Part shown: piece by piece, positions 10,717 to 64,000 of the stretch
Numbering within the stretch: position 1 is the stretch's first letter
Layout: every line of letters starts with the position of its first letter
Source of the DNA: Auanema rhodensis
Lineage: Eukaryota > Animalia > Nematoda
Direction of reading: 5' to 3'
Length of the DNA: 64,000 bases
NCBI GenBank assembly: GCA_964057225.1
Contig: OZ059898.1
Coordinates: forward strand, 10,044,001 to 10,108,000
Notes under the pieces: model-generated
Seen by the model: only the letters and a program-made list of their open reading frames with translations
The model's database searches: none
Told to the model about the DNA's origin: nothing
Made by a program: the position numbers and the translations under genes

Positions 10717-10721
<5 letters not shown>

Positions 10722-39923: not shown

Positions 39924-39994
39924 TGCATCGGCCGGGAATCGAACCCGGGTCGCCCGCGTGGCAGGCGAGCATTCTACCACTGAACCACCGATGC
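39924..39994 (-). tRNA. tRNA-Gly: tRNA-Gly(GCC)
   Basis: Same 71-nt gene. Confidence 0.97.
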
Positions 39995-40556: not shown

Positions 40557-40627
40557 TGCATCGGCCGGGAATCGAACCCGGGTCGCCCGCGTGGCAGGCG
40601 AGCATTCTACCACTGAACCACCGATGC
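40557..40627 (-). tRNA. tRNA-Gly: tRNA-Gly(GCC)
   Basis: Same 71-nt gene. Confidence 0.97.
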
Positions 40628-41420: not shown

Positions 41421-41491
41421 TGCATCGGCCGGGAATCGAACCTGGGTCGCCCGCGTGGCAGGCGAGCATTCTACCACTGAACCACCGATGC
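41421..41491 (-). tRNA. tRNA-Gly: tRNA-Gly(GCC), G51A T-stem variant
   Basis: Plus strand gaaccTggg. Confidence 0.9.
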
Positions 41492-42515: not shown

Positions 42516-42586
42516 TGCATCGGCCGGGAATCGAACCCGGGTCGCCCGCGTGGCAGGCGAGCATTCTACCACTGAACCACCGATGC
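42516..42586 (-). tRNA. tRNA-Gly: tRNA-Gly(GCC)
   Basis: Same 71-nt gene. Confidence 0.97.
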
Positions 42587-44070
42587 TTCGAAAATGTTAG
42601 ATTGTTTCCGAAAAATTATGAAAAGTCAAGTTCTACTGATTTGAAGAGAATTGTAAGTTTTAGAAAATAATTAAAAATAAGTTCTCTCTACTATTAACTG
42701 ATTGTCGGCTAAAATGAGGTAACAGTTTTTATTGAAAGTTTCCATGATTAGGAGTAAACAAAAAAAAGAATTAAAAAGAAACACTTCTTGTTTACTTACT
42801 TGATTATACTACTTGAAATTCGAAAAAATGTAAAAAACAATTGAGAAAGCGACATAAACAGTTGAACGATTTGAAGAGAATTGTAAGTTTAAGAAAAGAA
42901 TTAAAGTTTAGCTTTGTCTACTATTAACTGATTATCGGCTGAAATATGGTGACAGTTTTTTATTAAAAGTTTCCATGATTAAGATTAAACAAAGAAGAAA
43001 AAATCAAAGAGAGACACTTCTTGTTTAGTTATTTGATTATAATACTTGAAATTCCAAAAACAGTAGAATAAAATAGAGAAAGCGACGAAAAAAGTTGAAC
43101 GATTTGAAGAGAATTGTAAGTTTTAGAAAAGAATTAAAGTTCAGCTATCTCTACTATTAACTGAATGTCGGCTGAAATATGATAACAGTTTTTTTTAAAA
43201 GTTTCCATGATTAAGATTAAACAAAGAAAAAAAATCAAAGAGAAACACTTCTTGTTTACTTATTTGATTATAATACTTGAAATTCCAAAAACAGTAGAAT
43301 AAAATAGAGAAAGCGACGAAAAAAGTTGAACGATTTGAAGAGAATTGTAAGTTTTAGAAAATAATTAAAAATAAGTTCTCTCTACTATTAACTGATTGTC
43401 GGCTAAAATATGGTAACAGTTTTTATAAAAAGTTTCCATGATTAGGATTAAACAAAAAAAAGAACTAAAGAGAAACACTTTTTGTTTACTTATTTGATTA
43501 TAATACTTGAAATTCCAAAAACAGTAGAATAAAATTGAGAAAGAGACGAAAAAAGTTGAACGATTTGAAGACAATTGTAAGTTTAAGAAAAGAATTAAAG
43601 TTTAGCTTTGTCTACTATTAACTGATTATCGGCTAGAATAAGGTAACAGTTTTTATTGAAAGTTTCCATGATTAAGATTGAACAAAAAAAAATTAGAGAG
43701 AAACACTTCTTGTTTACTTACTTGATTATAATACTTGAAATTCCAAAAACAGTAAAATAAAATTGAGAAAGCGACAAAAACAGTTGAACGATTTGAAGAC
43801 AATTGTAAGTTGAAAAAAAAAATTAAAGTTTAGCTCTCTCTACTATTAACTGAATGTCGGCTAAAATATGATAACAGTTTTTATTAAAAGTTTTCATGAT
43901 TAAGATTAAACAAAGAAAAAAAATCAAAGAGAAACACTTCTTGTTTACTAATTTGATTATAACACTTGAAATTCCAACAAAAGTAAAATAAAACTGTGAA
44001 AGCGGGTAAAACTGTTGAACTAAAACAGTCTTTATAAAATATAAATGATATATTTTTATAAAAGTGAAGT

Positions 44071-44141
44071 TGCATCGGCCGGGAATCGAACCTGGGTCGC
44101 CCGCGTGGCAGGCGAGCATTCTACCACTGAACCACCGATGC
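44071..44141 (-). tRNA. tRNA-Gly: tRNA-Gly(GCC), G51A T-stem variant
   Basis: Plus strand gaaccTggg. Confidence 0.9.
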
Positions 44142-45165
44142 TTCGAAAATGTTAAATTGTTTCCGAAAAATTATGAAAAGTCAAGTTCTACTGATTTGAA
44201 GAAAATTGTAAGTTTTAGAAAATAATTAAAAATTAGTTCTCTCTACTATTAACTGATTGTCGGCTAAAATATGGTAACAGTTTTTTATAAAAAGTTTCCA
44301 TGATTAGGATGAAACAAAAAAAAGAATTAAAGAGAAACACTTTTTGTTTACTTATTTGATTATAATACTTGAAATTCCAAAAACAGTAGAATAAAATTGA
44401 GAAATCGACAAAAACAGTTGAACGATTTGAAGAGAATCGTAAGTTTTAGAAAAGAATTAAAGTTCAGCTATCTCTACTATTAACTGACTATCGGCTAGAA
44501 TAAGGTAACAGTTTTTATTGAAAGTTTCCATGATTAAGATTGAACAAAAAAAAAATTAGAGAGAAACACTTCTTGTTTACTTACTTGATTATAATACTTG
44601 AAATTCCAAAAACAGTAAAATAAAATTGAGAAAGCGACAAAAACAGTTGAACGATTTGAAGACAATTGTAAGTTTAAGAAAAGAATTAAAGTTTAGCTTT
44701 GTCTACTATTAACTGATTATCGGCTGAAATATGGTGACAGTTTTTTTTAAAAAGTTTCTATGATTAAGATTAAACAAAGAAAAAAAAATCAAAGAAAAAC
44801 ACTTCTTGTTTACTAATTTGATTATAACACTTGAAATTCCAACAAAAGTAAAGTAAAACTGTTAAAGCGAGTAAAACTGTTGAACAATTTGAAGACAATT
44901 GTAAGTTGAAAAAAAAAATTAAAGTTTAGCTCTCTCTACTATTAACTGAATGTCGGCTAAAATATGATAACAGTTTTTATTAAAAGTTTTCATGATTAAA
45001 ATTAAACAAAGAAAAAAATCAAAGAGAAACACTTCTTGTTTACTAATTTGATTATAACACTTGAAATTCCAACAAAAGTAAAATAAAACTGTGAAAGCGG
45101 GTAAAACTGTTGAACTAAAACAGTCTTTATAAAATATAAATGATATTTTTTTATAAAAGTGAAGT

Positions 45166-45236
45166 TGCATCGGCCGGGAATCGAACCCGGGTCGCCCGCG
45201 TGGCAGGCGAGCATTCTACCACTGAACCACCGATGC
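45166..45236 (-). tRNA. tRNA-Gly: tRNA-Gly(GCC)
   Basis: Same 71-nt gene. Confidence 0.97.
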
Positions 45237-46953
45237 TTCGAAAATGTTAGATTGTTTCCGAAAAATTATGAAAAGTCAAGTTCTACTGATTTGAAGAGAA
45301 TTGTAAGTTTTAGAAAATAATTAAAAATAAGTTCTCTCTACTATTAACTGATTGTCGGCTAAAATGAGGTAACAGTTTTTATTGAAAGTTTCCATGATTA
45401 GGAGTAAACAAAAAAAAGAATTAAAAAGAAACACTTCTTGTTTACTTACTTGATTATACTACTTGAAATTCGAAAAAATGTAAAAAACAATTGAGAAAGC
45501 GACATAAACAGTTGAACGATTTGAAGAGAATTGTAAGTTTAAGAAAAGAATTAAAGTTTAGCTTTGTCTACTATTAACTGATTATCGGCTGAAATATGGT
45601 GACAGTTTTTTATTAAAAGTTTCCATGATTAAGATTAAACAAAGAAGAAAAAATCAAAGAGAGACACTTCTTGTTTAGTTATTTGATTATAATACTTGAA
45701 ATTCCAAAAACAGTAGAATAAAATAGAGAAAGCGACGAAAAAAGTTGAACGATTTGAAGAGAATTGTAAGTTTTAGAAAAGAATTAAAGTTCAGCTATCT
45801 CTACTATTAACTGAATGTCGGCTGAAATATGATAACAGTTTTTTTTAAAAGTTTCCATGATTAAGATTAAACAAAGAAAAAAAATCAAAGAGAAACACTT
45901 CTTGTTTACTTATTTGATTATAATACTTGAAATTCCAAAAACAGTAGAATAAAATAGAGAAAGCGACGAAAAAAGTTGAACGATTTGAAGAGAATTGTAA
46001 GTTTTAGAAAATAATTAAAAATAAGTTCTCTCTACTATTAACTGATTGTCGGCTAAAATATGGTAACAGTTTTTATAAAAAGTTTCCATGATTAGGATTA
46101 AACAAAAAAAAGAACTAAAGAGAAACACTTTTTGTTTACTTATTTGATTATAATACTTGAAATTCCAAAAACAGTAGAATAAAATTGAGAAAGAGACGAA
46201 AAAAGTTGAACGATTTGAAGACAATTGTAAGTTTAAGAAAAGAATTAAAGTTTAGCTTTGTCTACTATTAACTGATTATCGGCTAGAATAAGGTAACAGT
46301 TTTTATTGAAAGTTTCCATGATTAAGATTGAACAAAAAAAAATTAGAGAGAAACACTTCTTGTTTACTTACTTGATTATAATACTTGAAATTCCAAAAAC
46401 AGTAAAATAAAATTGAGAAAGCGACAAAAACAGTTGAACGATTTGAAGACAATTGTAAGTTTAAGAAAAGAATTAAAGTTTAGCTTTGTCTACTATTAAC
46501 TGATTATCGGCTGAAATATGGTGACAGTTTTTTTTTAAAAGTTTCCATGATTAAGATTAAACAAAGAAAAAAAAATCAAAGAGAAACACTTCTTGTTTAC
46601 TAATTTGATTATAACACTTGAAATTCCAACAAAAGTAAAGTACAACTGTTAAAGCGAGTAAAACTGTTGAACAATTTGAAGACAATTGTAAGTTGAAAAA
46701 AAAAATTAAAGTTTAGCTCTCTCTACTATTAACTGAATGTCGGCTAAAATATAGTAACAGTTTTTATTAAAAGTTTCCATGATTAAGATTAAACAAAGAA
46801 AAAAAATCAAAGAGAAACACTTCTTGTTTACTAATTTGATTATAACACTTGAAATTCCAACAAAAGTAAAATAAAACTGTGAAAGCGGGTAAAACTGTTG
46901 AACTAAAACAGTCTTTATAAAATATAAATGATATTTTTTTATAAAAGTGAAGT

Positions 46954-47024
46954 TGCATCGGCCGGGAATCGAACCCGGGTCGCCCGCGTGGCAGGCGAGC
47001 ATTCTACCACTGAACCACCGATGC
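46954..47024 (-). tRNA. tRNA-Gly: tRNA-Gly(GCC)
   Basis: Same 71-nt gene. Confidence 0.97.
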
Positions 47025-47587
47025 TTCGAAAATGTTAGATTGTTTCCGAAAAATTATGAAAAGTCAAGTTCTACTGATTTGAAGAGAATTGTAAGTTTTA
47101 GAAAAGAATTAAAGTTCAGCTATCTCTACTATTAACTGACTATCGGCTAGAATAAGGTAACAGTTTTTATTGAAAGTTTCCATGATTAAGATTGAACAAA
47201 AAAAAAATTAGAGAGAAACACTTCTTGTTTACTTACTTGATTATAATACTTGAAATTCCAAAAACAGTAAAATAAAATTGAGAAAGCGACAAAAACAGTT
47301 GAACGATTTGAAGACAATTGTAAGTTTAAGAAAAGAATTAAAGTTTAGCTTTGTCTACTATTAACTGATTATCGGCTGAAATATGGTGACAGTTTTTTTT
47401 TAAAAGTTTCCATGATTAAGATTAAACAAAGAAAAAAAAATCAAAGAGAAACACTTCTTGTTTACTAATTTGATTATAACACTTGAAATTCCAACAAAAG
47501 TAAAATAAAACTGTGAAAGCGGGTAAAACTGTTGAACTAAAACAGTCTTTATAAAATATAAATGATATATTTTTATAAAAGTGAAGT

Positions 47588-47658
47588 TGCATCGGCCGGG
47601 AATCGAACCTGGGTCGCCCGCGTGGCAGGCGAGCATTCTACCACTGAACCACCGATGC
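47588..47658 (-). tRNA. tRNA-Gly: tRNA-Gly(GCC), G51A T-stem variant
   Basis: Plus strand gaaccTggg. Confidence 0.9.
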
Positions 47659-48681
47659 TTCGAAAATGTTAAATTGTTTCCGAAAAATTATGAAAAGTCA
47701 AGTTCTACTGATTTGAAGAAAATTGTAAGTTTTAGAAAATAATTAAAAATTAGTTCTCTCTACTATTAACTGATTGTCGGCTAAAATATGGTAACAGTTT
47801 TTATAAAAAGTTTCCATGATTAGGATGAAACAAAAAAAAGAATTAAAGAGAAACACTTTTTGTTTACTTATTTGATTATAATACTTGAAATTCCAAAAAC
47901 AGTAGAATAAAATTGAGAAATCGACAAAAACAGTTGAACGATTTGAAGAGAATCGTAAGTTTTAGAAAAGAATTAAAGTTCAGCTATCTCTACTATTAAC
48001 TGACTATCGGCTAGAATAAGGTAACAGTTTTTATTGAAAGTTTCCATGATTAAGATTGAACAAAAAAAAAATTAGAGAGAAACACTTCTTGTTTACTTAC
48101 TTGATTATAATACTTGAAATTCCAAAAACAGTAAAATAAAATTGAGAAAGCGACAAAAACAGTTGAACGATTTGAAGACAATTGTAAGTTTAAGAAAAGA
48201 ATTAAAGTTTAGCTTTGTCTACTATTAACTGATTATCGGCTGAAATATGGTGACAGTTTTTTTTAAAAAGTTTCTATGATTAAGATTAAACAAAGAAAAA
48301 AAAATCAAAGAAAAACACTTCTTGTTTACTAATTTGATTATAACACTTGAAATTCCAACAAAAGTAAAGTAAAACTGTTAAAGCGAGTAAAACTGTTGAA
48401 CAATTTGAAGACAATTGTAAGTTGAAAAAAAAAATTAAAGTTTAGCTCTCTCTACTATTAACTGAATGTCGGCTAAAATATGATAACAGTTTTTATTAAA
48501 AGTTTTCATGATTAAGATTAAACAAAGAAAAAAATCAAAGAGAAACACTTCTTGTTTACTAATTTGATTATAACACTTGAAATTCCAACAAAAGTAAAAT
48601 AAAACTGTGAAAGCGGGTAAAACTGTTGAACTAAAACAGTCTTTATAAAATATAAATGATATTTTTTTATAAAAGTGAAGT

Positions 48682-48752
48682 TGCATCGGCCGGGAATCGA
48701 ACCCGGGTCGCCCGCGTGGCAGGCGAGCATTCTACCACTGAACCACTGATGC
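48682..48752 (-). tRNA. tRNA-Gly: tRNA-Gly(GCC), G6A acceptor-stem variant
   Basis: Plus strand accacTgatgc instead of accacCgatgc. Confidence 0.9.
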
Positions 48753-50374
48753 TTCGAAAATGTTAGATTGTTTCCGAAAAATTATGAAAAGTCAAGTTCT
48801 ACTGATTTGAAGAGAATTGTAAGTTTTAGAAAATAATTAAAAATAAGTTCTCTCTACTATTAACTGATTGTCGGCTAAAATGAGGTAACAGTTTTTATTG
48901 AAAGTTTCCATGATTAGGAGTAAACAAAAAAAAGAATTAAAAAGAAACACTTCTTGTTTACTTACTTGATTATACTACTTGAAATTCGAAAAAATGTAAA
49001 AAACAATTGAGAAAGCGACATAAACAGTTGAACGATTTGAAGAGAATTGTAAGTTTAAGAAAAGATTTAAAGTTTAGCTTTGTCTACTATTAACTGATTA
49101 TCGGCTGAAATATGGTGACAGTTTTTTATTAAAAGTTTCCATGATTAAGATTGAACAAAGAAGAAAAAATCAAAGAGAGACACTTCTTGTTTACTTATTT
49201 GATTATAATACTTGAAATTCCAAAAACAGTAGAATAAAATAGAGAAAGAGACGAAAAAAGTTGAACGATTTGAAGAGAATTGTAAGTTTTAGAAAAGAAT
49301 TAAAGTTTAGCTTTGTCTACTATTAACTGATTATCGGCTGAAATATGGTGACAGTTTTTTATTAAAAGTTTCCAAGATTAAGATTAAACAAAGAAAAAAA
49401 ATCAAAGAGAAACACTTCTTGTTTACTTATTTGATTATAATACTTGAAATTCCAAAAACAGTAGAATAAAATAGAGAAAGAGACCAAAAAAGTTGAACGA
49501 TTTGAAGAGAATTGTAAGTTTTAGAAAAGAATTAAAGTTCAGCTATCTCTACTATTAACTGATTATCGGCTGAAATATGGTGACAGTTTTTTATTAAAAG
49601 TTTCCATGATTAAGATTAAACAAAGAAAAAAAAACCAAAGAGAAACACTTCTTGTTTACTTATTTGATTATAATACTTGAAATTCCGAAAACAGTAGAAT
49701 AAAATAAAGAAAGCGACAAAAACAGTTGAACGATTTGAAGAGAATCGGCTAAAATAAGGTAACAGTTTTTATTAAAGCGAGTAAAACTGTTGAACGATTT
49801 GAAGACAATCGGCTAAAATAAGGTAACAGTTTTTATTAAAGCGAGTAAAACTGTTGAACGATTTGAAGAAAATTGTAAGTTTTAGAAAATAATTAAAAAT
49901 AAGTTCTCTCTACTATTAACTGATTGTCGGCTAAAATATGGTAACAGTTTTTTTGAAAAGTTTCCATGATTAGGATTAAACAAAGAAAAAAGAATCAAAG
50001 AGAAACACTTCTTGTTTACTTATTTGATTATAATACTTGAAATTCCGAAAACAGTAGAATAAAATAAAGAAAGCGACAAAAACAGTTGAACGATTTGAAG
50101 AGAATTGTAAGTTTAAGAAAAGATTTAAAGTTTAGCTTTGTCTATTATTAACTGATTATCGGCTGAAATATGGTGACAGTTTTTTATTAAAAGTTTCCAT
50201 GATTAAGATTAAACAAAGAAAAAAAAATCAAAGAGAAACACTTCTTGTTTACTAATTTGATTATAACACTTGAAAATCCAACAAAAGTAAAATAAAACTG
50301 TGAAAGCGGGTAAAACTGTTGAACTAAAACAGTCTTTATAAAATATAAATGATATATTTTTATAAAAGAGAAGT

Positions 50375-50445
50375 TGCATCGGCCGGGAATCGAACCCGGG
50401 TCGCCCGCGTGGCAGGCGAGCATTCTACCACTGAACCACCGATGC
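50375..50445 (-). tRNA. tRNA-Gly: tRNA-Gly(GCC)
   Basis: Same 71-nt gene. Confidence 0.97.
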
Positions 50446-51007
50446 TTCGAAAATGTTAGATTGTTTCCGAAAAATTATGAAAAGTCAAGTTCTACTGATT
50501 TGAAGAGAATTTTAAGTTTTAGAAAAGAATTAAAAATAAGTTCTCTCTACTATTAACTGATTGTCGGCTAAAATATGGTAACAGTTTTTTTAAAAAGTTT
50601 CCATGATTAGGATTAAACAAAAAAAAGAATTAAAAAGAAACACTTCTTGTTTACTTACTTGATTATACTACTTGAAATTCGAAAAAAAGTAAAAAACAAT
50701 TGAGAAAGCGACATAAACAGTTGAACGATTTGAAGACAATTGTAAGTTGAAAAAAAAAATTAAAGTTTAGCTCTCTCTACTATTAACTGAATGTCGGCTA
50801 AAATATGATAACAGTTTTTATTAAAAGTTTTCATGATTGAGATTAAACAAAGAAAAAAAATCAAAGAGAAACACTTCTTGTTTACTAATTTGATTATAAC
50901 ACTTGAAAATCCAACAAAAGTAAAATAAAACTGTGAAAGCGGGTAAAACTGTTGAACTAAAACAGTCTTTATAAAATATAAATGATATTTTTTTATAAAA
51001 GTGAAGT

Positions 51008-51078
51008 TGCATCGGCCGGGAATCGAACCCGGGTCGCCCGCGTGGCAGGCGAGCATTCTACCACTGAACCACCGATGC
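51008..51078 (-). tRNA. tRNA-Gly: tRNA-Gly(GCC)
   Basis: Same 71-nt gene. Confidence 0.97.
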
Positions 51079-51871
51079 TTCGAAAATGTTAGATTGTTTC
51101 CGAAAAATTATGAAAAGTCAAGTTCTACTGATTTGAAGAGAATTGTAAGTTTTAGAAAATAATTAAAAATTAGTTCTCTCTACTATTAACTGATTGTCGG
51201 CTAAAATATGGTAACAGTTTTTATTGAAAGTTTCCATGATTAAGATTAAACAAAGAAAAAAAATCAAAGAGAAACACTTCTTGTTTACTTATTTGATTAT
51301 AATACTTGAAATTCCAAAAACAGTAGAATAAAATAGAGAAAGCGACGAAAAAAGTTGAACGATTTGAAGAGAATTGTAAGTTTTAGAAAAGAATTAAAGT
51401 TCAGCTATCTCTACTATTAACTGATTATCGGCTAAAATAAGGTAACAGTTTTTATTGAAAGTTTCCATGATTAAGATTAAACAAAGAAAAAAATCAAAGA
51501 GAAACACTTCTTGTTTACTTACTTGATTATAATACTTGAAATTCCAAAAACAGTAAAATAAAATTGAAAAAGCGACAAAAACAGTTGAACGATTTGAAGA
51601 CAATTGTAAGTTGAAAAAAAAAATTAAAGTTTAGCTCTCTCTACTATTAACTGAATGTCGGCTAAAATATGATAACAGTTTTTATTAAAAGTTTTCATGA
51701 TTAAGATTAAACAAAGAAAAAAAATCAAAGAGAAACACTTCTTGTTTACTAATTTGATTATAACACTTGAAATTCCAACAAAAGTAAAATAAAACTGTGA
51801 AAGCGGGTAAAACTGTTGAACTAAAACAGTCTTTATAAAATATAAATGATATTTTTTTATAAAAGTGAAGT

Positions 51872-51942
51872 TGCATCGGCCGGGAATCGAACCCGGGTCG
51901 CCCGCGTGGCAGGCGAGCATTCTACCACTGAACCACCGATGC
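51872..51942 (-). tRNA. tRNA-Gly: tRNA-Gly(GCC)
   Basis: Same 71-nt gene. Confidence 0.97.
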
Positions 51943-52737
51943 TTCGAAAATGTTAGATTGTTTCCGAAAAATTATGAAAAGTCAAGTTCTACTGATTTGA
52001 AGAGAATTGTAAGTTTTAGAAAATAATTAAAAATAAGTTCTCTCTACTATTAACTGACTATCGGCTAGAATAAGGTAACAGTTTTTATGAAAAGTTTCCA
52101 TGATTAGGATTAAACAAAAAAAAGAATTAAAAAGAAACACTTCTTGTTTACTTACTTGATTATACTACTTGAAATTCGAAAAAAAGTAAAAAACAATTGA
52201 GAAAGCGACATAAACAGTTGAACGATTTGAAGAGAATTGTAAGTTTAAGAAAAGATTTAAAGTTTAGCTTTGTCTACTATTAACTGATTATCGGCTGAAA
52301 TATGGTGACAGTTTTTTATTAAAAGTTTCCATGATTAAGATTAAACAAAGAAAAAAAAATCAAAGAGAAACACTTCTTGTTTACTTATTTGATTATAACA
52401 CTTGAAATTCCAACAAAAGTAAAGTAAAACTGTTAAAGCGAGTAAAACTGTTGAACGATTTGAAGACAATTGTAAGTTTAAGAAAAGAAATAAAGTTTAG
52501 CTTTGTCTACTATTAACTGATTGTCGGCTAAAATATGGTAACAGTTTTTATGAAAAGTTTCCATGATTTAGATTAAACAAAGAAAAAAAATCAAAGAGAA
52601 ACACTTCTTGTTTACTAATTTGATTATAACACTTGAAAATCCAACAAAAGTAAAATAAAACTGTGAAAGCGGGTAAAACTGTTGAACTAAAACAGTCTTT
52701 ATAAAATATAAATGATATATTTTTATAAAAGTGAAGT

Positions 52738-52808
52738 TGCATCGGCCGGGAATCGAACCCGGGTCGCCCGCGTGGCAGGCGAGCATTCTACCACTGAACC
52801 ACCGATGC
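52738..52808 (-). tRNA. tRNA-Gly: tRNA-Gly(GCC); element 2 is inserted 62 bp upstream
   Basis: Same 71-nt gene. Confidence 0.97.
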
Positions 52809-52870
52809 TTCGAAAATGTTAGATTGTTTCCGAAAAATTATGAAAAGTCAAGTTCTACTGATTTGAAGAG

Positions 52871-53214
52871 CGTTCCGTTATGCTCCTGCGTCGATAATAT
52901 AAACCATTGTAGTTTATACCATGACGCGAATAGTATTCCTTGGTGTAGCGGTAGGAATACAGAGCATAAGGTCAATCATAAGATAAAATAGAGAAAGATT
53001 TATTAGCATGAAACTACAACAATAATATACAAAGATAAAGATACAATACAATAAGATAAATATAAGTATAAAGACTAAACTACAAGCCGTCCATGAGCTT
53101 GCTAAGAGGCGAACTCCCGACCCAGGGAACGAGGCAAGGCGGAGCCATTCCTCGGTCCTCTGGTCGTCTGGCTCTAACCCTTCAGCTACATATATGGGGA
53201 GTCCGAATGGAACG
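52871..53214 (-). repeat. Inferred 3' LTR of element 2 (344 bp, CGTTCC...GGAACG)
   Basis: Inverted termini; sense strand preceded by purine tract plus GGCA as in element 1; AATAAA (52999-53004) in a context (catg..aataaa.ctttctct) shared with the element 1 LTR; partner LTR not visible. Confidence 0.78.
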
Positions 53215-53225
53215 TGCCCTTTTTC
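53215..53225 (-). promoter_or_regulatory. Polypurine tract of element 2
   Basis: Sense GAAAAAGGGCA abutting the inferred LTR start. Confidence 0.65.
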
Positions 53226-53909: not shown

Positions 53910-56900
53910 TCATGCTTTCTCTTTTTGATTTTTCATCCGTGGTAACCATAATTCATCTCCATCTTCGTTCTCTGATTCCGGTTCGCTATCGGTGTTATCT
54001 TGCTCGTTTCTTTTGATCACTCTTAGTATCTCTATATCGCTGTCCTCTTCTTCTTCTTCGTGATTGTTGCGTGTATTAGAGCGGGTATTGTGAGTGATAT
54101 TTTGAGTCGCGTTTGAGAAGAGTTTGAGATTATCCTTGTGGATATCTTGTATCTTTCCTGATGAATTCCTTATCTGCACCTTGGATCCTTGTACGTTAAT
54201 AACTTCGTAAGGTCCGTCATAGCTTTTCCTCAGTTTCTGACCAATTTTATGTGACTTTATTGTTGTCATCACCATGTCGCCGGGTTGAATGTTCCTTTCG
54301 TGCGTTCTTTGTGTTCTATCCTTCTTCTTTCTGGCGTTTTCTTGGTTTTGGGCGATACGTTCACGTATTATTTGGTCTATTTTCATCATTTGAGGTCTTC
54401 TCGTGAGTAATTCTTCCGAAATCTCTTTGATTTTTGTTATGGTTCCCGGTAATTCGGCATCAATTTTCATTCTGCATTCTTTTCCAAAAAGTGCTACGTA
54501 TGGGGCTATGCCTGTTGTAGCATGCTGAATATTATTGATAGCGAATGTAATTTTTGGCAATACGCTATCCCAGTCGCTTAGATCTTCCTTCAAGTAGTGT
54601 GTTAATCCTTCCTCAAGAGTTCTGTGTAGTCTTTCGACTTGTCCGTTTGAGTTCTTTTGGTGAGGAAGGGTGGGTTCATGTTGAATTCCCAGTTTTGTAC
54701 ACATTTCTTCAAACTTTTGAGATACAAAATTAGATCCTCTATCGGTGATCAGTCGATGAGGCGGTCCGTATATGTATACAAAGTTGCGTAGAAATCTGTC
54801 AATTGTTATTTCTGTCGTAATTTGCGGTACTGCTATCGTGGTTGACCATTTAGTAAAAGCATCCTGGATGGTAATAACGTAAGTACAATTCCTTTTTGAC
54901 GGGGGAAAAGGTCCCATTACATCCATATGAACCCGTTCAAAAGGCTTGGTCGGTATTTCAAATTGACCTATTGGCTGTACTGTCATAGAATGTGGGTCCT
55001 TCTTCCTTTGTGCGCATTTAATGCAGTTTTTGATATATATCATGATATCATTTTGCATGTTGGTCCAATAAAATCTCCGTAGGATGGCTTCTTTAGTTTT
55101 ATTAATTCCTTGATGCGCTGCGATTGTAGGATCTTCGTGAAATAATTCTATTATCTCGTCCTTGATTGGATGATCTTGTGGCACAACGATTGCAGGATGT
55201 GGTTTCTTGTCTGTTGGTTTTGTGTAGAGTAATCCATTTATAACGCAATATCTATCGTTAGAGACCATTTTCTTTTGCGTTCTATATTCGATGTCCGCGA
55301 TTGTTTTCTTTATCCATAGAGTATTTTGTTGAATTTCTTTTATAGCAGGTGTATCAATAGTATTTATTCTGATCGATTCTGCGTTTTTCTTTTTCTTCTT
55401 TTCCGGCTTTGCATCATTTGCTTCATCGCCTATATAACGTGACAATGCATCACATACTTTATTGAGCTGGCCCTCTCTGTACCTTATCTCAATGTCGTAT
55501 TCTTGTATTACTAACTGAAATTTAGCAAGACGACCAAATAGGTCTCTGCGAGTTAGTAAACTTGTGAGAGGGCGATGGTCAGTGATACATATAGTATGCG
55601 TTCCCAGTATGTATGTGCGAAATTGATTCAGTGCATATACTAACCCTAAGGCTTCAATTTCGATTGGTGCGTAATTGCGTTCCGCTTTTACCAGTTTTCT
55701 GCTGGCAAATGCGATAGGATGAAGATGCTTCAATGGTTGCGTTTGATCTTCTGGTTGCAATAATACTGCGCCCACTGCTATGTTGCTGCCGTCACTCTCG
55801 ATAATGAATAATCGATCAGATTTTGGTGGACTTAATACAGGCGCTTGGGTGAGACTTCTTTTTAATCGATCTACAGCTTCCTGATGTTGCTTTTCCCAAG
55901 CGAATTCGGTATCCGTCTTTGTCAAATCGTACAATGGGCTTGCGATACTTGCAAAATCTTTAATGAATTTGCGAAAAAATCCAACCATTCCTAAGAATGC
56001 GCGAACGCCTGTTGCGTTCTTTGGTGCCGGATATTCTTGTATCGCAGCCACTTTTTGAGGGTCCGGTTTTATTCCTTCTCTTCCAATTATTAATCCAAGA
56101 AATTTTACTTCTGGTTGAGCAAAGGCACATTTCTTTAACTTAATTTTCATTCCCAAACTTTCGACCGCATGTAATAATTCGTCGATATCTTCAAGGTGTT
56201 GCTTTCTTGTATCAGAGATTATCAGCAGATCGTCCAAGTATACAAATAATTTGCAAGAGCATTTACTTTGCAAATATCTTACTGCTGTTTGAAAAGTATG
56301 AGGGGCTCCGCAGAGACCCATAGGCATTCTTTTATATTGATACGTGCCTGATGTTGTTGTAAATGCTGTTAAATGACGATCAGATTTACGTAGTGATATT
56401 TGAAAAAATCCTGATACTAAATCGAAGTTTGAGAAGAATTGAGCTCCAGCTGCCATGTCAACTATATCCGATATGCTTGGTATAACGTATGTTTGTTTAC
56501 GCGTGACACTATTGAGGGCTCGAAAATCTGTCACGAACCTATATGTCTCATCCTTCTTCTTCACTAGCACAGCAGGGCTATTGAAGAGGGATGTAGAGGG
56601 TTCGATTATGCCTTGCTCTAGCATTTCTTTTACTTGCTTTTCCACTTCTTCCTGTTTACCAAGTGGAATCCTCGTTATTCTTGACCTTGGCATGTCCATA
56701 TCCGATCTTAGTGGAATTGTATGCTCAATGGGTCCTTTAAATAGACCTATCTTCCTATCTTCATTAAGAAAGGCCTCACGATGGTTCTTAACTATGTTTG
56801 TGAGCTCGTGCTTGTCTTCATTATTCAAATCTGCTTTATCCAGATTAAGGTCATTCATAAAATTTCTTGGAAAGTGGGGTAATTTATTCTCCCAATCTGC

Positions 56901-59900
56901 TTCTGGAGGAATATATGGTTGCATAGGGTCTTCTTGTATTGTTTGCCAACTTGGTACTTCTCCTATTGTTGCCTGCCCTATGACTGAATTAGCTTCCATA
57001 GCTAATGTTTTGTCCGTATTGTTACGGAAAACTACATATACTCCACTTGTCTCACGGAAAGCTGTTGGATAACTTGAAGCTAATGCATTTCCGTTGTCTC
57101 CTAAGATTACCACTTCGTTTGATTTAAGTGGTCTATCAGCTTTGATTGGAATAGTGGACTCTTCATCGGGTTGTATGATTCTTTTCTTCAAATTGATGAT
57201 ATTTACTGTTATTGCCGTTTGTTTAATGGGGGGGGGGAGTGCGTAATTTCCGATCTCTAGCATCTTTTTCGATGGTTTTAAACTGACATCAATGTTTTCA
57301 CTGTCGAGCGTGCTCATAAAGTCCATCCCAATAAGAGCAGGGGCTGGGCAATCACAGTCATTTGAGACCAAAAAGGTATGTTCTATCTCATAGCCAGCAA
57401 TTTCGATGTTTAAATTTATTTTTCCGTATAATGTAAACGTTGTTTTGTTTGCTGCCATTGCCACTAATCGTCGCTTTTTGACGTGTTGAGCCATGTTCAG
57501 GTATTTTAATGTCGATAGCCTGACATATGAGACTGACGAGCCTGAATCCCATAAAGCTAATATCAGCTTATCTTCTACTGATATATAGATAAGTGGTAGC
57601 TTTGTTTCTTTTGATTTAATAGAAGCAATAAATGGTATTGCTAGTGGAATGAATGTTACGAGCGCCGGGTAATACTGCTTCATTATATTTTCTGGCATTG
57701 GTTGGTCTGGGCGGCTAACGAGTTCTAATGTTTCCTCGTAGCCTGGGGGCTCGTTGTCTGCTCTTTGAATATGCATGACTGGTAGTGGCATTGCTTTGAA
57801 AAAGTAAAATTTTCCGGCAAAGATGGTAATTATGATTGCTGCAATGATTAGAACAGTAGATCCTATTAATATTAAGGTTCTTTCAATTGTCCCCATTAAG
57901 AATTGTTTTATGCTATTCCAGGCTGTAGTTGTGAACTCAGTTGCTTTCGAAATATAATCGCTGCCCTTTTTCAAAAGAATAAAGGCTGACGTTATCTTTG
58001 GGTCGTTGTGAATCGTATTTAGTACGTGATTTTGTCGTATTGAAGCTAAACTAGCTCCATACGCTATTGCGGTAGTCATTGAATAGACTCTTGATGAAAG
58101 ATTAGTATAAAGATGAGCACCTGTAAATTTTAAAGGCGTAACTTTATGTTGGTGAGCTCCATCAAAAAGTGTGATGGGATTGACTTCCGCAGACCCATTA
58201 ATGTTCATCCATTCCCCGTTTTTCTCATAAATATCAGTTGGTACGTGTTCGCAGTCGATTTCTTTCCCGTACGAGAGTAAATCTCTTGATCCCGGTGCTG
58301 CGAAATATAATTTGTTGTCTTCGGTTGTTACTGGTGTCTCTAAGTAACATGTTTCATTGATTTTATGAGAGTGGTGAACGGTTTTAGGCTCTATTGGTAG
58401 GCATATATGAACATGAACTATTTCGCTGCCCACGAAACGCGCTGCTATGTCTTCTCTGCCGAGGATTGTTCTCATTGCTATGGTTGGCTCTATTTGGAGA
58501 ATTGAACGCCACAATTCGAGATATCTATTTTGTATCTCGCATATGGATTCGTAAGATTCCATAAAATGCTTTTGCAATTCTTCCTGTATAAGAGTGGTTG
58601 CATATTGTAGATGATCTTGCGCTATTCTCTGAGATATATTCTGTTTATATTGTATCTCGTTGTTTACTTTAAAGCCTATATAATGTGCTTGCGCTTGTAC
58701 TGCTTTCGTTTCAATCTCCAAAGGTGGTGATGACGTTCTCTGCTTTCTTTGCGATCTTAAAGACATATCTGTGACCGTTGCAAACGTAGTAATAGGCTGT
58801 TCTTTGTGAACACCATATATTAATGTAACCGTTGTTGGGGCGCGCGTGGATGTTATGGTTTGAGTTATATCGATCTCTGGCGTTGTTTGAGGGTCCTGGA
58901 TTAGCTTTGTTACTTCCGTTGTTGTCGTTATATATTCCGTTTTGTCTGTCAGGCGTCTGGTTGAGTAGGGAGGTGTTCTTTTATCCTCTAGTAGCGGTAG
59001 AAAGGTTTGAATGAGAAGATTTCGTGTATATTTGTTAGGACTTTTTGTTTGTTGATGGGGCCCAACAGGTATACCAAAATTATTCTCCATATCTCGATAT
59101 AATTTCTCTATATGTGGCAGGATAATAGTTGGTACAGGCAGATGTCGAAATCTTTCATCGTCTGCTCTGGCCGCTGTTTGATTGGGTTTTATTGTACGTA
59201 GTTTGAGGACTTGGTGATATAGGTCAATTGTTTCTTTAATAATCAGTTGTTCCTTTTCGTTATTAGTTGATAATACGGGCCTGATTGGCGGCATGTTTAC
59301 AAATGCTTTCAAAACTTCTTGTTTTGATGGCACCGACATGTTATTTTGAGCGAAAATGGTCGGTGTAAATGCCAACTCGAGCGCTATACTTTCGGTTCGC
59401 TCTCGATAACTTCCTTCTTTTGTGAGTATTTTTTCGTCAAATTCTTCTGCTGTTAATCTGTCGCCTATCTGCTCTAAAAGTTGCAGGGAGGTGAGGTATT
59501 TAACGGCTCCTCTTGTGGTAGCTGCCAGTTCTTTTTGGGCGAAGAATTGAAGCATTGCTTCTTCCGGGTCGTAGAATTCATATATTTTTAAGAATCTTTC
59601 TATTGATCTATCCGAAGTAGTGCTTCGTAGGAAGAATTTGAACTGCTCGGGATGTGCTGAGATCCACTTAACGATAGAATATGTTGGATCTATTGTCCGT
59701 CTGGCTCGAATTATAGGAATTATTTGTGATATCCCAGGGTTACTCATTACTGGACGTAAAAATAGGTATGGGCATATGTTCAATGTTAAAGTTTCGTAGT
59801 CTTCTTGTTCTTTTATCCAGCTTTCGTCCAATTGCAGTGCGCATTGCGCTATAGCCCTTTTTTGACGCTTAGCTGGCAACTTTTTATATTCTCTTTCAAT

Positions 59901-62831
59901 TAAGTTGTGTATATTACTGTCATTTGGATATTTGGGAAAGAGTATATAATTGCCCGTGGTTGATTGAAATATAGGTTGCGAAAAACATGATGTAATCTGT
60001 TTTGGAATTTGTTTATTGTCGATAACAAGGGCTGACTGCGTATTGGGAATCAGTATTATGCTGTCTCCAATGATGGCATCATATTCGCTCATGTCTATAT
60101 AGTTGCATCTCTGTTCGTATGATTGGATTTCCCAGATGATCATTGAAGTATTGGATGCGCATTGGCCATGATGTGCAAGACAGCCTTCCGTATTGAGTAA
60201 TAGATTTGTCAATATGGTGTCGTCTGGCATCCTGGTCATAACGCCTCTTTCCAAAACCAGTCGTTCTTTTTCTTCGCATTGTTCGTAATTGAATGAGCGC
60301 GCTGGAGAGAATGTAGGTTCGGTTGTCGCGTATGTCAAGCTATCCAATTTAATCAGGTCTTCTGATTTCCATTTACGGTCGCGGACAGCCAGTCTACATT
60401 CGTTTTCTGTTGTTGGCTCAATTCGAACAATGGAGGAGTTATGATCTCTTAAAAATAGCAAATCCCTGATGCATATTTTATGTATTTCTTTTGAACATCG
60501 CCATGAATCCCATTCGTGAGCCGTCTGGTTTCTTGTATACAGATGTATGTTTGTGCGGAGGACATGTTTGGTAGGTGGTATTGTGCATTTCCTCAGGGGT
60601 GGGGGTATAAGGAGGGCTCCACCTGTAGCTTTAGTGCACATCTGATAAGCATCAGTTATAGTGATTAGTGATAAGATCACTGATAAAGCTACTGCTAGTG
60701 TTAAGGGGGATATCAAGGTCAAATTATTGACTCTTGAGCCTCTTCCTCTACCTCTATTATTGTTGTTTCCCCTGAAGGGATTATTGCCGCGTTGACGGTT
60801 ATCACTCTCCTGATTACGTGATAAGTTGTTATTTCTTTGATACCAATTTGGATTTGAGAGATTTCTACCGCGATTACCAAGATTGCGGTTTCTTGCGAAA
60901 GAATTTTGCAAATTTTGTGGTTTCTGATTATTTGATGAATTTTGATAACTTTGATAATTTTGATAATTTTGATAGTTTCTATTGTTAAATGATTGATAGC
61001 CTCTACCGATTCCTCGCCTTCCGGTGTCGCGCCTGGGAGGGAATGTTCTATCGATTGCGTTAACCAGTAGCGCCTGAGGGTCGGCTACTTGGTTAGCAAT
61101 TGATTCCTCCCATCTGGCATTATCAATTGCCTCGGCAAACGTTTTTGGTTTAGCTCTGATTACCCCCGGGCGTATTGTGTTTTTGAGACCGCGTAGAAAG
61201 GTGGATCTAAGAATGTGGTCCTTGTGTGGGTCTGTATGTGAGAAAGCGTTTAAGCTTAGGCTTCGTAAAGTTTGTGCGAATCCATCCACTGATAGCTCGC
61301 CTTGGGTGGAATTCTGTAGCGTTATCAGCGCCGGATCTTGATTATACTCTGGGCATAGCCTAGAGGTAAGTTCTTCGATGAGTGTATTCCACGAGCCAGA
61401 TGTCTTGATAGTATCGCTAAGCTGTGTATAAGCTTCTTCAGCTCGTTCGTTTTTGAGAAGTAATGGTAAGATTGTTAATCTTTCGGGCATAACTAAGCCT
61501 AAGGCGTTTGCAAAGGTGTTAAACTTGGCCACGAAGTCTCTAAAGTTGCGACTTCCGTCGTATATAGGGCAATATGGGGAGCTTAATGCCTGAGCAATGG
61601 TAGATTTACCCGCTCCTGGAAGCCGTGATGTTTCGGTCATTTCGGATGAGATGCCCTCAGGGTATGTGATAGGTGATATTATCACTTCGCTCCTTGTTGG
61701 ATCTTGATGAGTGTTTTCTATTGCCTTAGGGTTTCTGCTAGAGGAGCCTATTATAGGTGTAGTTGTTGCGAAACGGGCTCTTGGAACCTGGATGACTTTA
61801 CCAGATGCCTGAGGCGATGTTCTATCAGTTGATCGTGAGCTAGGGATCGCACTATCTGATCTGTTAAGATAAGGATTATGTGAAGAAAACCGGGGTTTTG
61901 CTGTTCCGCCGGGTGTTGTTTTATCGCCTGGGGATAAGTTTAAAATCTTTATCAGTCGATTTGTTAAAGATCTTTTGTTTTTAAACTTATCAGTTGTTAA
62001 TGATAAGGGTGAAGCTTCTTGTATGCCTTCGAGGCTGGCTTCTACTGACAAAGTTTCTGTTGCGCGCTTACTGGGTGTTTTTGTCTTCCGCTTATTAGGG
62101 ATATTCTTTTTGATCTTATCAGTGATTTTTGATAAGGTTGAAGGGTTGTCACTAAGTTGGGTGGGTTCTAAAGTTAGCGAATGTGGTTGATTAATAGGCG
62201 TGGAAGACGCTTGCGGGCTTTGTGTTAACCCGAGGGATGGGGAAGGTGCGTTATCAGTGATAACTGATAAGTTCGACGCGTTTGGGTCTGAGGTTACCGG
62301 TGAGGCAGATGCGGTTGTCGGCTTTTTCTTTTGAATTTTTCGCAAATTTTTATTAGTATCAACTGAGCGTACCTTGGGATTTGTAGTTGGAGTTTGAGTG
62401 CTGTCGTCGGCTATGATGAAGTCCGGGTCTTCGTCGGTGTCGTCAGAAGGTGAATATGTACCTTCTCGGGGAGTATAGAACTTGTCGACTTGCGGCTTCG
62501 GCTTCTCGTCTGGTTGGTGCGGTTCTTCTATTTGAACACTGAGAAGTCGGGTGCGGCTTCGGGTACGACTTGCGACAGTAGCGTCACTGTTGATATCGGA
62601 CGGGTAAAGGGCTAGGAAAGCCGATGAGAATCTTTTGGCCACCTTTGTAGGACTTTTGGTTTGGAAAAACCGAAAATGGTGAGCTACGTGTGGGATGTTG
62701 ATGTAAGGTGCGTAAGATTCTTTTAGATGTGTGTTGGGAGAGAGAGAGATTCGGGAGCAATAGGATAGTCGTGCTTCGCTGGGCGATGCGGAGGGTAAAT
62801 GAGAGGGAGTTTTCCAAATCGTGGCCACCAA
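53910..62831 (-). CDS. gag-pol: Intact Gag-Env-PR-RT-RH-IN single polyprotein (start uncertain; first ATG at 61640)
   Basis: YDGS capsid, QGELSVDGF, RG/N-rich NC, signal peptide, gB-like ectodomain, TM, LWDSGSS, YLDD (56229-56240), RNase H, HHCC, DDE, GPY. Confidence 0.95.
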   Translation of the reverse strand: MVATIWKTPSHLPSASPSEARLSYCSRISLSPNTHLKESYAPYINIPHVAHHFRFFQTKSPTKVAKRFSSAFLALYPSDINSDATVASRTRSRTRLLSVQIEEPHQPDEKPKPQVDKFYTPREGTYSPSDDTDEDPDFIIADDSTQTPTTNPKVRSVDTNKNLRKIQKKKPTTASASPVTSDPNASNLSVITDNAPSPSLGLTQSPQASSTPINQPHSLTLEPTQLSDNPSTLSKITDKIKKNIPNKRKTKTPSKRATETLSVEASLEGIQEASPLSLTTDKFKNKRSLTNRLIKILNLSPGDKTTPGGTAKPRFSSHNPYLNRSDSAIPSSRSTDRTSPQASGKVIQVPRARFATTTPIIGSSSRNPKAIENTHQDPTRSEVIISPITYPEGISSEMTETSRLPGAGKSTIAQALSSPYCPIYDGSRNFRDFVAKFNTFANALGLVMPERLTILPLLLKNERAEEAYTQLSDTIKTSGSWNTLIEELTSRLCPEYNQDPALITLQNSTQGELSVDGFAQTLRSLSLNAFSHTDPHKDHILRSTFLRGLKNTIRPGVIRAKPKTFAEAIDNARWEESIANQVADPQALLVNAIDRTFPPRRDTGRRGIGRGYQSFNNRNYQNYQNYQSYQNSSNNQKPQNLQNSFARNRNLGNRGRNLSNPNWYQRNNNLSRNQESDNRQRGNNPFRGNNNNRGRGRGSRVNNLTLISPLTLAVALSVILSLITITDAYQMCTKATGGALLIPPPLRKCTIPPTKHVLRTNIHLYTRNQTAHEWDSWRCSKEIHKICIRDLLFLRDHNSSIVRIEPTTENECRLAVRDRKWKSEDLIKLDSLTYATTEPTFSPARSFNYEQCEEKERLVLERGVMTRMPDDTILTNLLLNTEGCLAHHGQCASNTSMIIWEIQSYEQRCNYIDMSEYDAIIGDSIILIPNTQSALVIDNKQIPKQITSCFSQPIFQSTTGNYILFPKYPNDSNIHNLIEREYKKLPAKRQKRAIAQCALQLDESWIKEQEDYETLTLNICPYLFLRPVMSNPGISQIIPIIRARRTIDPTYSIVKWISAHPEQFKFFLRSTTSDRSIERFLKIYEFYDPEEAMLQFFAQKELAATTRGAVKYLTSLQLLEQIGDRLTAEEFDEKILTKEGSYRERTESIALELAFTPTIFAQNNMSVPSKQEVLKAFVNMPPIRPVLSTNNEKEQLIIKETIDLYHQVLKLRTIKPNQTAARADDERFRHLPVPTIILPHIEKLYRDMENNFGIPVGPHQQTKSPNKYTRNLLIQTFLPLLEDKRTPPYSTRRLTDKTEYITTTTEVTKLIQDPQTTPEIDITQTITSTRAPTTVTLIYGVHKEQPITTFATVTDMSLRSQRKQRTSSPPLEIETKAVQAQAHYIGFKVNNEIQYKQNISQRIAQDHLQYATTLIQEELQKHFMESYESICEIQNRYLELWRSILQIEPTIAMRTILGREDIAARFVGSEIVHVHICLPIEPKTVHHSHKINETCYLETPVTTEDNKLYFAAPGSRDLLSYGKEIDCEHVPTDIYEKNGEWMNINGSAEVNPITLFDGAHQHKVTPLKFTGAHLYTNLSSRVYSMTTAIAYGASLASIRQNHVLNTIHNDPKITSAFILLKKGSDYISKATEFTTTAWNSIKQFLMGTIERTLILIGSTVLIIAAIIITIFAGKFYFFKAMPLPVMHIQRADNEPPGYEETLELVSRPDQPMPENIMKQYYPALVTFIPLAIPFIASIKSKETKLPLIYISVEDKLILALWDSGSSVSYVRLSTLKYLNMAQHVKKRRLVAMAANKTTFTLYGKINLNIEIAGYEIEHTFLVSNDCDCPAPALIGMDFMSTLDSENIDVSLKPSKKMLEIGNYALPPPIKQTAITVNIINLKKRIIQPDEESTIPIKADRPLKSNEVVILGDNGNALASSYPTAFRETSGVYVVFRNNTDKTLAMEANSVIGQATIGEVPSWQTIQEDPMQPYIPPEADWENKLPHFPRNFMNDLNLDKADLNNEDKHELTNIVKNHREAFLNEDRKIGLFKGPIEHTIPLRSDMDMPRSRITRIPLGKQEEVEKQVKEMLEQGIIEPSTSLFNSPAVLVKKKDETYRFVTDFRALNSVTRKQTYVIPSISDIVDMAAGAQFFSNFDLVSGFFQISLRKSDRHLTAFTTTSGTYQYKRMPMGLCGAPHTFQTAVRYLQSKCSCKLFVYLDDLLIISDTRKQHLEDIDELLHAVESLGMKIKLKKCAFAQPEVKFLGLIIGREGIKPDPQKVAAIQEYPAPKNATGVRAFLGMVGFFRKFIKDFASIASPLYDLTKTDTEFAWEKQHQEAVDRLKRSLTQAPVLSPPKSDRLFIIESDGSNIAVGAVLLQPEDQTQPLKHLHPIAFASRKLVKAERNYAPIEIEALGLVYALNQFRTYILGTHTICITDHRPLTSLLTRRDLFGRLAKFQLVIQEYDIEIRYREGQLNKVCDALSRYIGDEANDAKPEKKKKKNAESIRINTIDTPAIKEIQQNTLWIKKTIADIEYRTQKKMVSNDRYCVINGLLYTKPTDKKPHPAIVVPQDHPIKDEIIELFHEDPTIAAHQGINKTKEAILRRFYWTNMQNDIMIYIKNCIKCAQRKKDPHSMTVQPIGQFEIPTKPFERVHMDVMGPFPPSKRNCTYVITIQDAFTKWSTTIAVPQITTEITIDRFLRNFVYIYGPPHRLITDRGSNFVSQKFEEMCTKLGIQHEPTLPHQKNSNGQVERLHRTLEEGLTHYLKEDLSDWDSVLPKITFAINNIQHATTGIAPYVALFGKECRMKIDAELPGTITKIKEISEELLTRRPQMMKIDQIIRERIAQNQENARKKKDRTQRTHERNIQPGDMVMTTIKSHKIGQKLRKSYDGPYEVINVQGSKVQIRNSSGKIQDIHKDNLKLFSNATQNITHNTRSNTRNNHEEEEEDSDIEILRVIKRNEQDNTDSEPESENEDGDELWLPRMKNQKEKA
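57810..60722 (-). other. env: Env-like class III fusion glycoprotein domain inside polyprotein 2
   Basis: Signal LTLAVALSVILSLITITDA|YQMC; KRQKR (59856-59870); Thr-rich tract; ICEIQN..W..IEP..CLPI..CY..PV..P.SR..IDC; TM TLILIGSTVLIIAAIIITIFAG. Confidence 0.82.
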
Positions 62832-64000
62832 TCTGACTCCGCCTATCTACCGTAAGCTTATTATAGTTAATGATGTTTATCTCTTCTCAAAAACTATTTT
62901 AATCCGCTCTTGCACTTTCCTCTAATTTTGTTTTCTTACTGCTCTAGAATCTTCAAAAAAAAAACTTTATTCATGTCGTCCCCTTTGTACTTTTGCGGCC
63001 TTTGGACATTTATTTTAAGGTTAGAAACAAAAGAAAAGAAAAGAAAGAAAGAAAAAAAATGGATTTCCAACGTTATAATCCCACTGGCATGACTTATGTC
63101 CTGTGGAAATTATACGAATCCATCGTTGAATACGATGGAGAAGGAGTTTTGGCTTATAGGCCACATCCTGATATAATTTTGATGGTTTGTGTATCTCCAT
63201 TTTATGTTTGATTATTTGATTACTTTAGTTTATCGAAGATCTCCAAATGTATTATTTGGGGCAGGGCCATATAAACTTTGCCACCTTCGTAGATGTAGCT
63301 CCCGAAGTGGAGCTTGTTGGTCGAAGGTGCTTAGTTGATCTATGCGCTCATGTATATAATGGTAGGGCCGGTTTATTAACCGTACGTCCTTGGGCCTGGT
63401 ACCGGGAAAAGAGTCATTTTTATTATTATTTATTATATAGATTATTGTTTAAAATCTATATTGTTTATGATGACTCATTATTTGGTTTGGAACTTAGGGT
63501 TTCGCGAGGTTTAGAATATAGTGAAGATTTAATTGCGAGCGAAACTCCTATGTTTCTTGCCTCTGAGTTTCGAACTCGGTTGCAAATCAAATATGGGTAT
63601 TGACTGAATAAAGTTTGTACTCTGTGTTTTTATTTTTGTGCACTTTGCTCTGTTTTCGTCAAGAAAATGGACTTATGTTTGCAATCTTTTCCTCATTCCT
63701 TTTCCCTTAAATAGCATGTTTTGCTCAAAATGTTTTCGACATTGTGCATGCTAATGAGGTTTGAGGAGAGTTATTGAAAAGGCTGTCCTTTTTCTTGATC
63801 AAAATAAGCAAAAGTGCGTTTTCCTAAGCGAATTTCTTTTTAAAATGAGAAAAATACGTCTATTTTTAAACATTTCCAATTTACTTAGGATTACTGTAGG
63901 AGATAAGGGGTATCTTATGAGTTGAAACAACGAAATGATTTGAGGAAGGTGACATAATCTACGGGGATAAAATCCGTAGCAGTTATGCTTCCGCCAACTT

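Follow-up and report, generated by a model that had tools for sequence, protein, structure and literature searches.

Nematode elements of the GAG-ENV-POL type, in which gag, env and pol share one continuous frame, were reportedly first described as "NERVs" by Sacco et al. 2022 (J Gen Virol). According to passages of a later survey by Chary and Hayashi (eLife, PMC13524379), which credits the arrangement to Sacco et al. 2022, the elements of nematodes, bryozoans and flatworms carry an env of the gB type only and are arranged GAG-ENV-POL; 36 nematode elements are included, eight of them with a Gln primer site. Within the same host phylum, Cer1 of C. elegans is a Ty3/gypsy element with a long polyprotein, whose extra region, once proposed to be an env, is now regarded as the RNA-export protein CERV in the sections of PMC10309623 concerned with it, and which has no gB-type env between gag and pol.

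With regard to target sites, a review of Pol III-gene targeting (PMC5911963) lists in its Table 1 Ty3 (S. cerevisiae), Tj1, DGLT-A and Skipper-2 as well as the non-LTR elements TRE5 and NLTR-B as inserting at a fixed distance from tRNA genes. The sections in question cover fungal and amoebal elements only, and the two gene layouts described there contain no env. In animals, according to parts of PMC8869645, the elements that target tRNA genes are DNA transposons and non-LTR elements. For A. rhodense, passages of a recent preprint (bioRxiv 10.64898/2026.08.27.747507) describe repeat blocks confined to the germline that contain tRNA arrays and TE-derived genes, and are silent on insertion sites.

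Here, we analyzed a window of 64,000 nucleotides of the Auanema rhodensis genome (the whole stretch of DNA under study), in which two envelope-bearing elements, referred to as elements 1 and 2, interrupt a tRNA-bearing satellite array (Table 1). The analysis focused on element 2. Its reading frame had originally been predicted as 2973 unbroken codons, and indeed no internal stop was found from TTG 62831 onward; the open frame stands, but a protein of this length is unproven, as there is no AUG upstream of codon 398. Based on Pfam domains and hydropathy, the frame encodes, in this order, a Gag capsid, a hydrophobic signal, a gB-like class III Env, a transmembrane helix, protease, reverse transcriptase (RT), RNase H and integrase. 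Element 2 thus shows the pol order of Ty3/gypsy elements (Metaviridae), the NERV-type position of env between gag and pol, all three genes within one continuous frame, and a gB-type class III env enclosed by a signal/transmembrane segment and a transmembrane anchor (Pfam, hydropathy and structure model). A Ty3/gypsy pol, an env between gag and pol and a gB-type env bounded by hydrophobic segments are likewise features of the nematode GAG-ENV-POL errantiviruses in the published passages (PMC13524379). Element 2 is very probably a nematode Ty3/gypsy LTR retrotransposon with Gag, a gB-like class III Env and Pol in a single frame, and, like element 1, it likely integrates at a favored position shortly ahead of tRNA genes within the repeat array.

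Table 1. Positions of elements 1 and 2, of their parts and of the surrounding array in the window (aa numbering from TTG 62831).
Feature	Position	Strand	Evidence or remark
Element 2, single Gag-Env-Pol open frame	53910..62846	-	2978 aa from stop to stop; 2973 aa from TTG 62831
N-terminal 397 codons, Ser/Thr/Pro/Lys-rich, open, without AUG	61641..62831	-	sequence
Gag capsid region, aa 421-575	61107..61571	-	Pfam Retrotrans_gag at 463-550; z 27 vs element 1
Arg/Asn/Gly-rich stretch at nucleocapsid position	60732..61106	-	sequence
Internal hydrophobic signal ahead of Env, about aa 701-730	60648..60731 (aa 701-728)	-	hydropathy peak 2.29
Env ectodomain, class III (gB / Monjiviricetes type), aa 729-1644	57900..60647	-	Pfam PF24664; structure model
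Furin-type motif RQKR, aa 989-992	59856..59867	-	sequence; also present in element 1
Mostly helical insert of ~300 aa within Env, followed by Thr-rich stretch	58962..59849	-	z 32 vs element 1; structure models
Env transmembrane helix, aa 1645-1681	57789..57899	-	hydropathy peak 2.92
Aspartic protease, LWDSG at aa 1760	57312..57581	-	Pfam and sequence motif
Reverse transcriptase, YLDD at aa 2198	56052..56714	-	RVT_1, E 4e-31
RNase H	55497..55898	-	RT_RNaseH_2, E 8e-29
Integrase, H2C2 finger and DDE core	54432..55169	-	Pfam
Purine-rich tract ahead of 3' LTR of element 2	53215..53225	-	sequence; GGCA ending as in element 1
3' LTR of element 2, 344 nt, ends CGTTCCAT...ACGGAACG	52871..53214	-	outer end: loose ends at 52871 in 4/4 runs; inner end by analogy with element 1
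Visible half of presumed 4-bp target duplication of element 2	52867..52870		+59 to +62 upstream of tRNA gene; other half beyond window
tRNA-Gly(GCC) gene next to element 2	52738..52808	-	one of 31 tRNA genes in window
Satellite array of 151 detected units (~231 nt each), tRNA-Gly(GCC) cassettes scattered among them	21892..52870, continuing at 1-9638		sequence
Element 1	9643..21891	+	413-nt LTRs, 0 mismatches; tRNA-Gln-type primer site; Gag-Env-Pol
Target duplication of element 1, AGAA	9639..9642, repeated 21892-21895		+59 to +62 upstream of tRNA-Gly gene 9510-9580
Stop codon of element 1, early in RT	17306-17308	+	sole break of its Gag-Env-Pol frame
Extra 230-aa frame of element 1 after pol	20582-21274	+	open reading frame

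The order Gag-Env-Pol itself, which the original prediction had implied to be novel, has already been published for nematode elements (passages of PMC13524379), and elements 1 and 2 are two additions to this described class. Auanema elements are absent from the master table of that study, although two Auanema assemblies screened there gave ENV-POL matches. Moreover, its relevant passages contain no mention of insertion sites, a 300-aa Env insert or an AUG-free 5' frame. In one Env row of its supplement, the Cys pattern is similar to that of element 2 as judged by eye.

Within Gag, the Retrotrans_gag match of element 2 (E 8e-4) is below the Pfam curated cut-off. A CCHC finger was not found in element 2; its place is occupied by the Arg/Asn/Gly-rich stretch, which may serve in RNA binding. 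The first AUG of the frame is codon 398, at position 61640, and many relatives start 30-60 residues ahead of the capsid match, a position equivalent to this AUG. Upstream of it, ATG is absent from all minus-strand frames over 1333 nt (62973 to 61641). A lack of ATG over 1206 nt occurred in only 1/2000 Markov simulations and 2/5000 codon shuffles, and comparison windows taken from the body of the element 2 ORF contained 14-25 ATGs each. At the same time, the 402 codons upstream of AUG 398 are free of stops, which was achieved in none of 2000 simulations. In composition, this N-terminal stretch resembles the N-terminus of element 1 (Ser 15%, Pro 11%, Thr 10-11%); likeness between the two sequences was not found in comparison to shuffles (z 0.4). 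As far as can be judged from sequence, the ATG gap together with the open frame would fit a non-AUG or spliced start combined with scanning to AUG 398. Two products may accordingly be expected: AUG 398 would yield a chain of 2576 aa, and the non-AUG or spliced start a longer chain. An acceptor-like TTCTCAG ends at 62539 in element 2. Element 1 has TTTCCAG 14 nt upstream of its AUG and shows no comparable ATG gap.

The Env ectodomain of element 2 comprises 16 Cys residues and 10 N-glycosylation sequons. PF24664, the Monjiviricetes fusion glycoprotein, matches above cut-off at aa 1357-1548 (E 7.5e-17), and a herpesvirus gB match overlaps it. When the structure model of aa 729-1644 (45-row alignment; mean pLDDT 74.6) was compared to solved structures using Foldseek, the best matches were all herpesvirus gB (HSV gB, E 1e-11). 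Among predicted viral structures, the best matches were glycoproteins of rhabdo-like, nyami- and chu-like viruses and of herpesviruses (E 2e-14 onward). Because the TM-scores of these matches are low (0.16-0.25) and the pTM of the model is 0.49, the gB-type fold assignment holds at the level of domains and does not represent a whole-chain match. Atlas virus belongs to the Bel/Pao lineage and has a class II fusogen. Like element 2, this element of Ancylostoma is an envelope-bearing nematode retroelement, but its envelope is phlebovirus-like (Gn/Gc) in the published passages on it.

Cleavage would be expected just before YQMC, directed by the internal signal, and furin may cut at RQKR. The insert that follows the furin motif is a candidate attachment domain and was recognised in 7/152 relatives. 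A Foldseek comparison of its fold to BFVD at E 0.001 was negative, a usable Atlas match was not obtained, and the best VIA Z among 48,161 chains was 4.5, with none reaching at least 5. This lack of matches proves neither a new fold nor an absence of relatives.

Next, we asked how the internal env relates to the rest of the element. It had been proposed to be an old, maintained trait of the clade and neither a nested insertion nor a chimera, based on the order and the Cys motifs common to elements 2 and 1. The pairs YQMC/YHLC (aa 729), WRCSKEI/WKCSKEI (aa 777) and LERGVMT/LERGMMT (aa 860) were all found, and the matching Cys spacing was recovered in the alignment, where 14/16 Env-region cysteines of element 2 align with cysteines of element 1. 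The pair at aa 879 is present as well, but its spacing had been given too short and actually reads LNTEGC-x4-G-x-C-x6-IIW/IVW. In local alignments of the two elements against 60 shuffles, the N-terminal part of Env reached a z of 65, the C-terminal part 93 and the insert 32, and three low-complexity regions remained at about 0. Raw percent identity misleads here, since these three unrelated blocks reach 25-31% in global alignment.

At the nucleotide level, pS was 0.71-0.77 and pN 0.42-0.50 in three Env ectodomain blocks. Across all 13 blocks pS ranged from 0.70 to 0.95, and the Jukes-Cantor dS was infinite in 10/13. Because dS is saturated, there is no reliable dN/dS between elements 1 and 2; of the per-domain comparison foreseen in the original prediction, the pairwise alignment succeeded, with Env far above shuffles, but a dN/dS figure was unobtainable.

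The same order is widespread among relatives: in 53/152, env precedes pol in one chain (18 of those with Gag recognised in front), pol precedes env in three, and no pol domain is visible in 96. Both named protein matches stem from rhabditid nematodes and share the order. P0002 (Auanema sp. JU1783), a partial record of 1666 aa, is 57% identical to element 2 over the N-terminal part of Env; P0003 (Caenorhabditis auriculariae) is 30% identical over this part and has a spacer of 255 aa between the Env halves, compared to about 385 here. Trees of RT-RNase H and of Env were built from 18/154 proteins, namely those with enough RT, RNase H and Env. Elements 1 and 2 are joined in both (support 97/95 for RT-RNase H and 93 for Env), with P0003 and P0014 coming next (100/99 and 98), placing P0003 within the clade of the elements in both trees. 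RT and Env trees concur in four small clades; the Env tree is a quick, unrooted version with long branches flagged, and neither tree includes published nematode elements or an outgroup.

Could the internal env nevertheless be a recent nested insertion, a chimera or dead cargo? Identity between the elements is lower in Env (30-39%) than in RT (73%; integrase, 49%), and relatives differ widely in the length of the spacer separating the Env halves (8 to 527 aa), as might be expected of such an origin. However, the frame is open across both Env borders, and the cysteines, furin motif and anchor have been retained despite saturated synonymous sites. With the four concurring clades and an order that recurs in relatives and in the literature, this explanation is extremely improbable. 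We conclude that the internal env was inherited and is not a nested insert, because 14/16 Env cysteines are shared, the LTRs are unrelated except for their ends, and both trees pair elements 1 and 2. The proposal of an old, maintained clade trait is thus borne out by Env scores above shuffles, saturated synonymous sites, the agreement of the RT and Env trees and the order among relatives.

The LTRs of the two elements had been described as largely unrelated, and this was confirmed by a global alignment score of 90 against 76 +/- 12 for shuffles (max 108, n = 200), with only the terminal 6-8 bases alike. The LTR ends differ from the usual TG...CA, being TG...CG in element 1 (9643-10055) and CG...CG in element 2, with 7/8 terminal bases inverted. 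Two LTRs, primer site, purine tract and target duplication are complete in element 1. Element 2 shows its 3' LTR and purine tract in the window, and its 5' LTR, primer site and far junction lie beyond position 64000. The idea that TGGTGGCC at 62830 might be a primer site immediately following a 5' LTR was rejected, as the window contains the sequence of the 3' LTR only once. In three of four DNA runs, the LTR loose ends of other copies correspond to tRNA-Gln-class primer sites like that of element 1, a type also present in the eight nematode elements mentioned above (PMC13524379, in part). Judging from these ends, reverse transcription of element 2 is likely primed by tRNA-Gln.

Element 1 carries the stop in RT although its LTRs are identical. 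Its extra 230-aa frame has no Pfam match, and at the corresponding place of element 2 there is no frame of at least 150 aa.

The four DNA runs, taken from 11 in which the sequence occurs, originate from three studies, and one of them is possibly the source of the window itself; they cover all 30 bins of 52866-62900. None of the datasets listed with the sequence was an RNA run, which speaks neither for nor against expression. They contain 120 differences; among the 40 listed, 26 fall in the ORF, of which 23 were classified and three at an indel were dropped. Seventeen of the classified differences are synonymous and six are not, none creates a stop, and only four are located in Env. The one ORF indel among the differences listed is 12 nt long. 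The frame and the catalytic motifs of element 2 are intact, and, given these differences and the identical LTRs of element 1, its family looks young and under constraint. These features characterize the family and fall short of proving the replication competence originally suggested for this copy. In 3/4 runs, we further detected the joint of an internally deleted form lacking 53897-62401, almost the whole ORF. GACGACA stands at both ends of the deleted segment in the window, as template switching predicts, and the deleted form is likely a non-autonomous derivative retaining the packaging region. Contig depth over the LTR was about ten times that over the ORF body in X1, X6 and X9; this ratio is not usable as a copy number, and hints at many solo or deleted copies.

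The array surrounding the elements spans 40,617 bases (40.6 kb) and forms a higher-order repeat with 31 tRNA-Gly(GCC) genes on one strand, of which 24 are identical and 25 have a common 15-nt downstream sequence including a T run. Elements 1 and 2 are its only interruptions of at least 40 nt. The two are oppositely oriented, and the junction of each (2/2) lies upstream of a tRNA-Gly(GCC) gene, at +59 to +62; for the duplication of element 1, a 3-bp reading is also possible owing to an A run. The chance of such a shared offset is 7.6e-4 if the second insertion is taken as uniform over the array, a value computed after the pattern had been noticed. On balance, we consider it probable that the two elements share an insertion target.

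Three explanations of the common position have to be weighed. It could be secondary, element 2 having landed at the terminus of a pre-existing element or undergone recombination with it, or it could have come about by chance or through the assembly of a repeat array. In favor of such an origin, the window does not include the far end of element 2, GGAACG terminates both LTRs and is a possible recombination point, and arrays homogenise. Such an origin appears rather unlikely given the low uniform chance, the difference between the two 420-nt left flanks (399 identical positions) and the sharp LTR end of element 2, on which the loose ends of all four runs agree.

The elements could also prefer the sequence or chromatin of the satellite unit boundary independently of the tRNA gene. 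The site coincides with a monomer boundary, and its 16-nt junction context occurs at 78 empty array sites, 27 of them tRNA-adjacent and 51 away from tRNA genes. Furthermore, the terminal LTR bases are common to both elements, and the integrases may share preferences. Strict target sequences at the level of single bases are, however, unusual for Ty3/gypsy integrases, and both insertions belong to the tRNA-adjacent minority of sites. A boundary preference of this kind is a doubtful, if possible, explanation.

Finally, the RNA polymerase III machinery could tether the integrase, with insertion some 60 bp ahead of tRNA genes, as is the case, each at its own distance, for yeast Ty3 and for DGLT-A and TRE5 of Dictyostelium. 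In favor of targeting of this type, the offset is the same for two elements in opposite orientations whose integrases are only 49% identical. Both occupy tRNA-adjacent units, for which the chance is about 0.04 if the homologous position is counted in 149 places (three mismatches allowed; 29 tRNA-adjacent) but about 0.13 on the exact 16-nt context (29/80 sites including the two filled ones). One further LTR flank, in run X6, resembles the A box or start of a tRNA gene; this weak indication comes from two records (agreement 0.8) among the loose ends listed, with 44 others outside them, and the stretch lies far closer than 60 bp. The distance itself falls into the range of 39-64 bp upstream given for amoebal non-LTR elements (PMC5911963, Table 1). 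The known Ty3/gypsy targeters of that table, in contrast, insert 1-33 bp upstream or 8-23 bp downstream, so that its LTR elements stay within 33 bp of the tRNA gene, and their fixed distance is demonstrated, whereas for elements 1 and 2 it is only suggested, by n = 2. A published case of tRNA-directed LTR insertion in nematodes or other animals was not found in the openly accessible literature searched. Tethering to tRNA genes is thus a tentative reading, and at two insertions, tRNA-directed and sequence-directed site choice are about equal and inseparable.

How might such an element work? Under the arrangement observed, one polyprotein would be threaded twice through the ER membrane, leaving Gag cytosolic, Env lumenal and Pol cytosolic. 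The internal signal (aa 701-728) would target Env to the lumen; at the Env anchor (aa 1645-1681), the chain would cross back, so that protease, RT, RNase H and integrase come to lie in the cytosol. The parts could then be released by signal peptidase, furin and the viral protease. Gag, Env and Pol would in this way be tied to one translation event, without frameshift or splicing of env. Env, in turn, would enable the passage of particles between cells, probably from soma to germline. Cell-to-cell passage via Env is argued for errantiviruses generally in section 11 of PMC13524379, a passage in which the entry mechanism of the gB type is called unknown.

What looks new is that element 2 and a distant relative lie upstream of tRNA genes with exactly identical spacing. 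As a cautious proposal that we would not yet favor over its alternatives, the nematode env-bearing Ty3/gypsy clade could have evolved Ty3-like targeting, with two families whose synonymous sites are saturated integrating 59-62 bp upstream of tRNA genes and using the tRNA-satellite array as a safe haven. If true, an animal would possess an LTR retroelement that targets Pol III genes and, in addition, bears an envelope. The sections cited (PMC5911963) document LTR elements of yeasts and amoebae that choose targets beside Pol III genes, and an animal case would mean that the strategy has arisen again. If the array is germline-restricted, like the A. rhodense repeat blocks described in the preprint passages (bioRxiv 10.64898/2026.08.27.747507), the elements would sit in DNA that is discarded by the soma, with implications for the site of Env expression. 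Targeting, if confirmed, would explain the persistence of envelope-bearing elements in gene-dense worm genomes.
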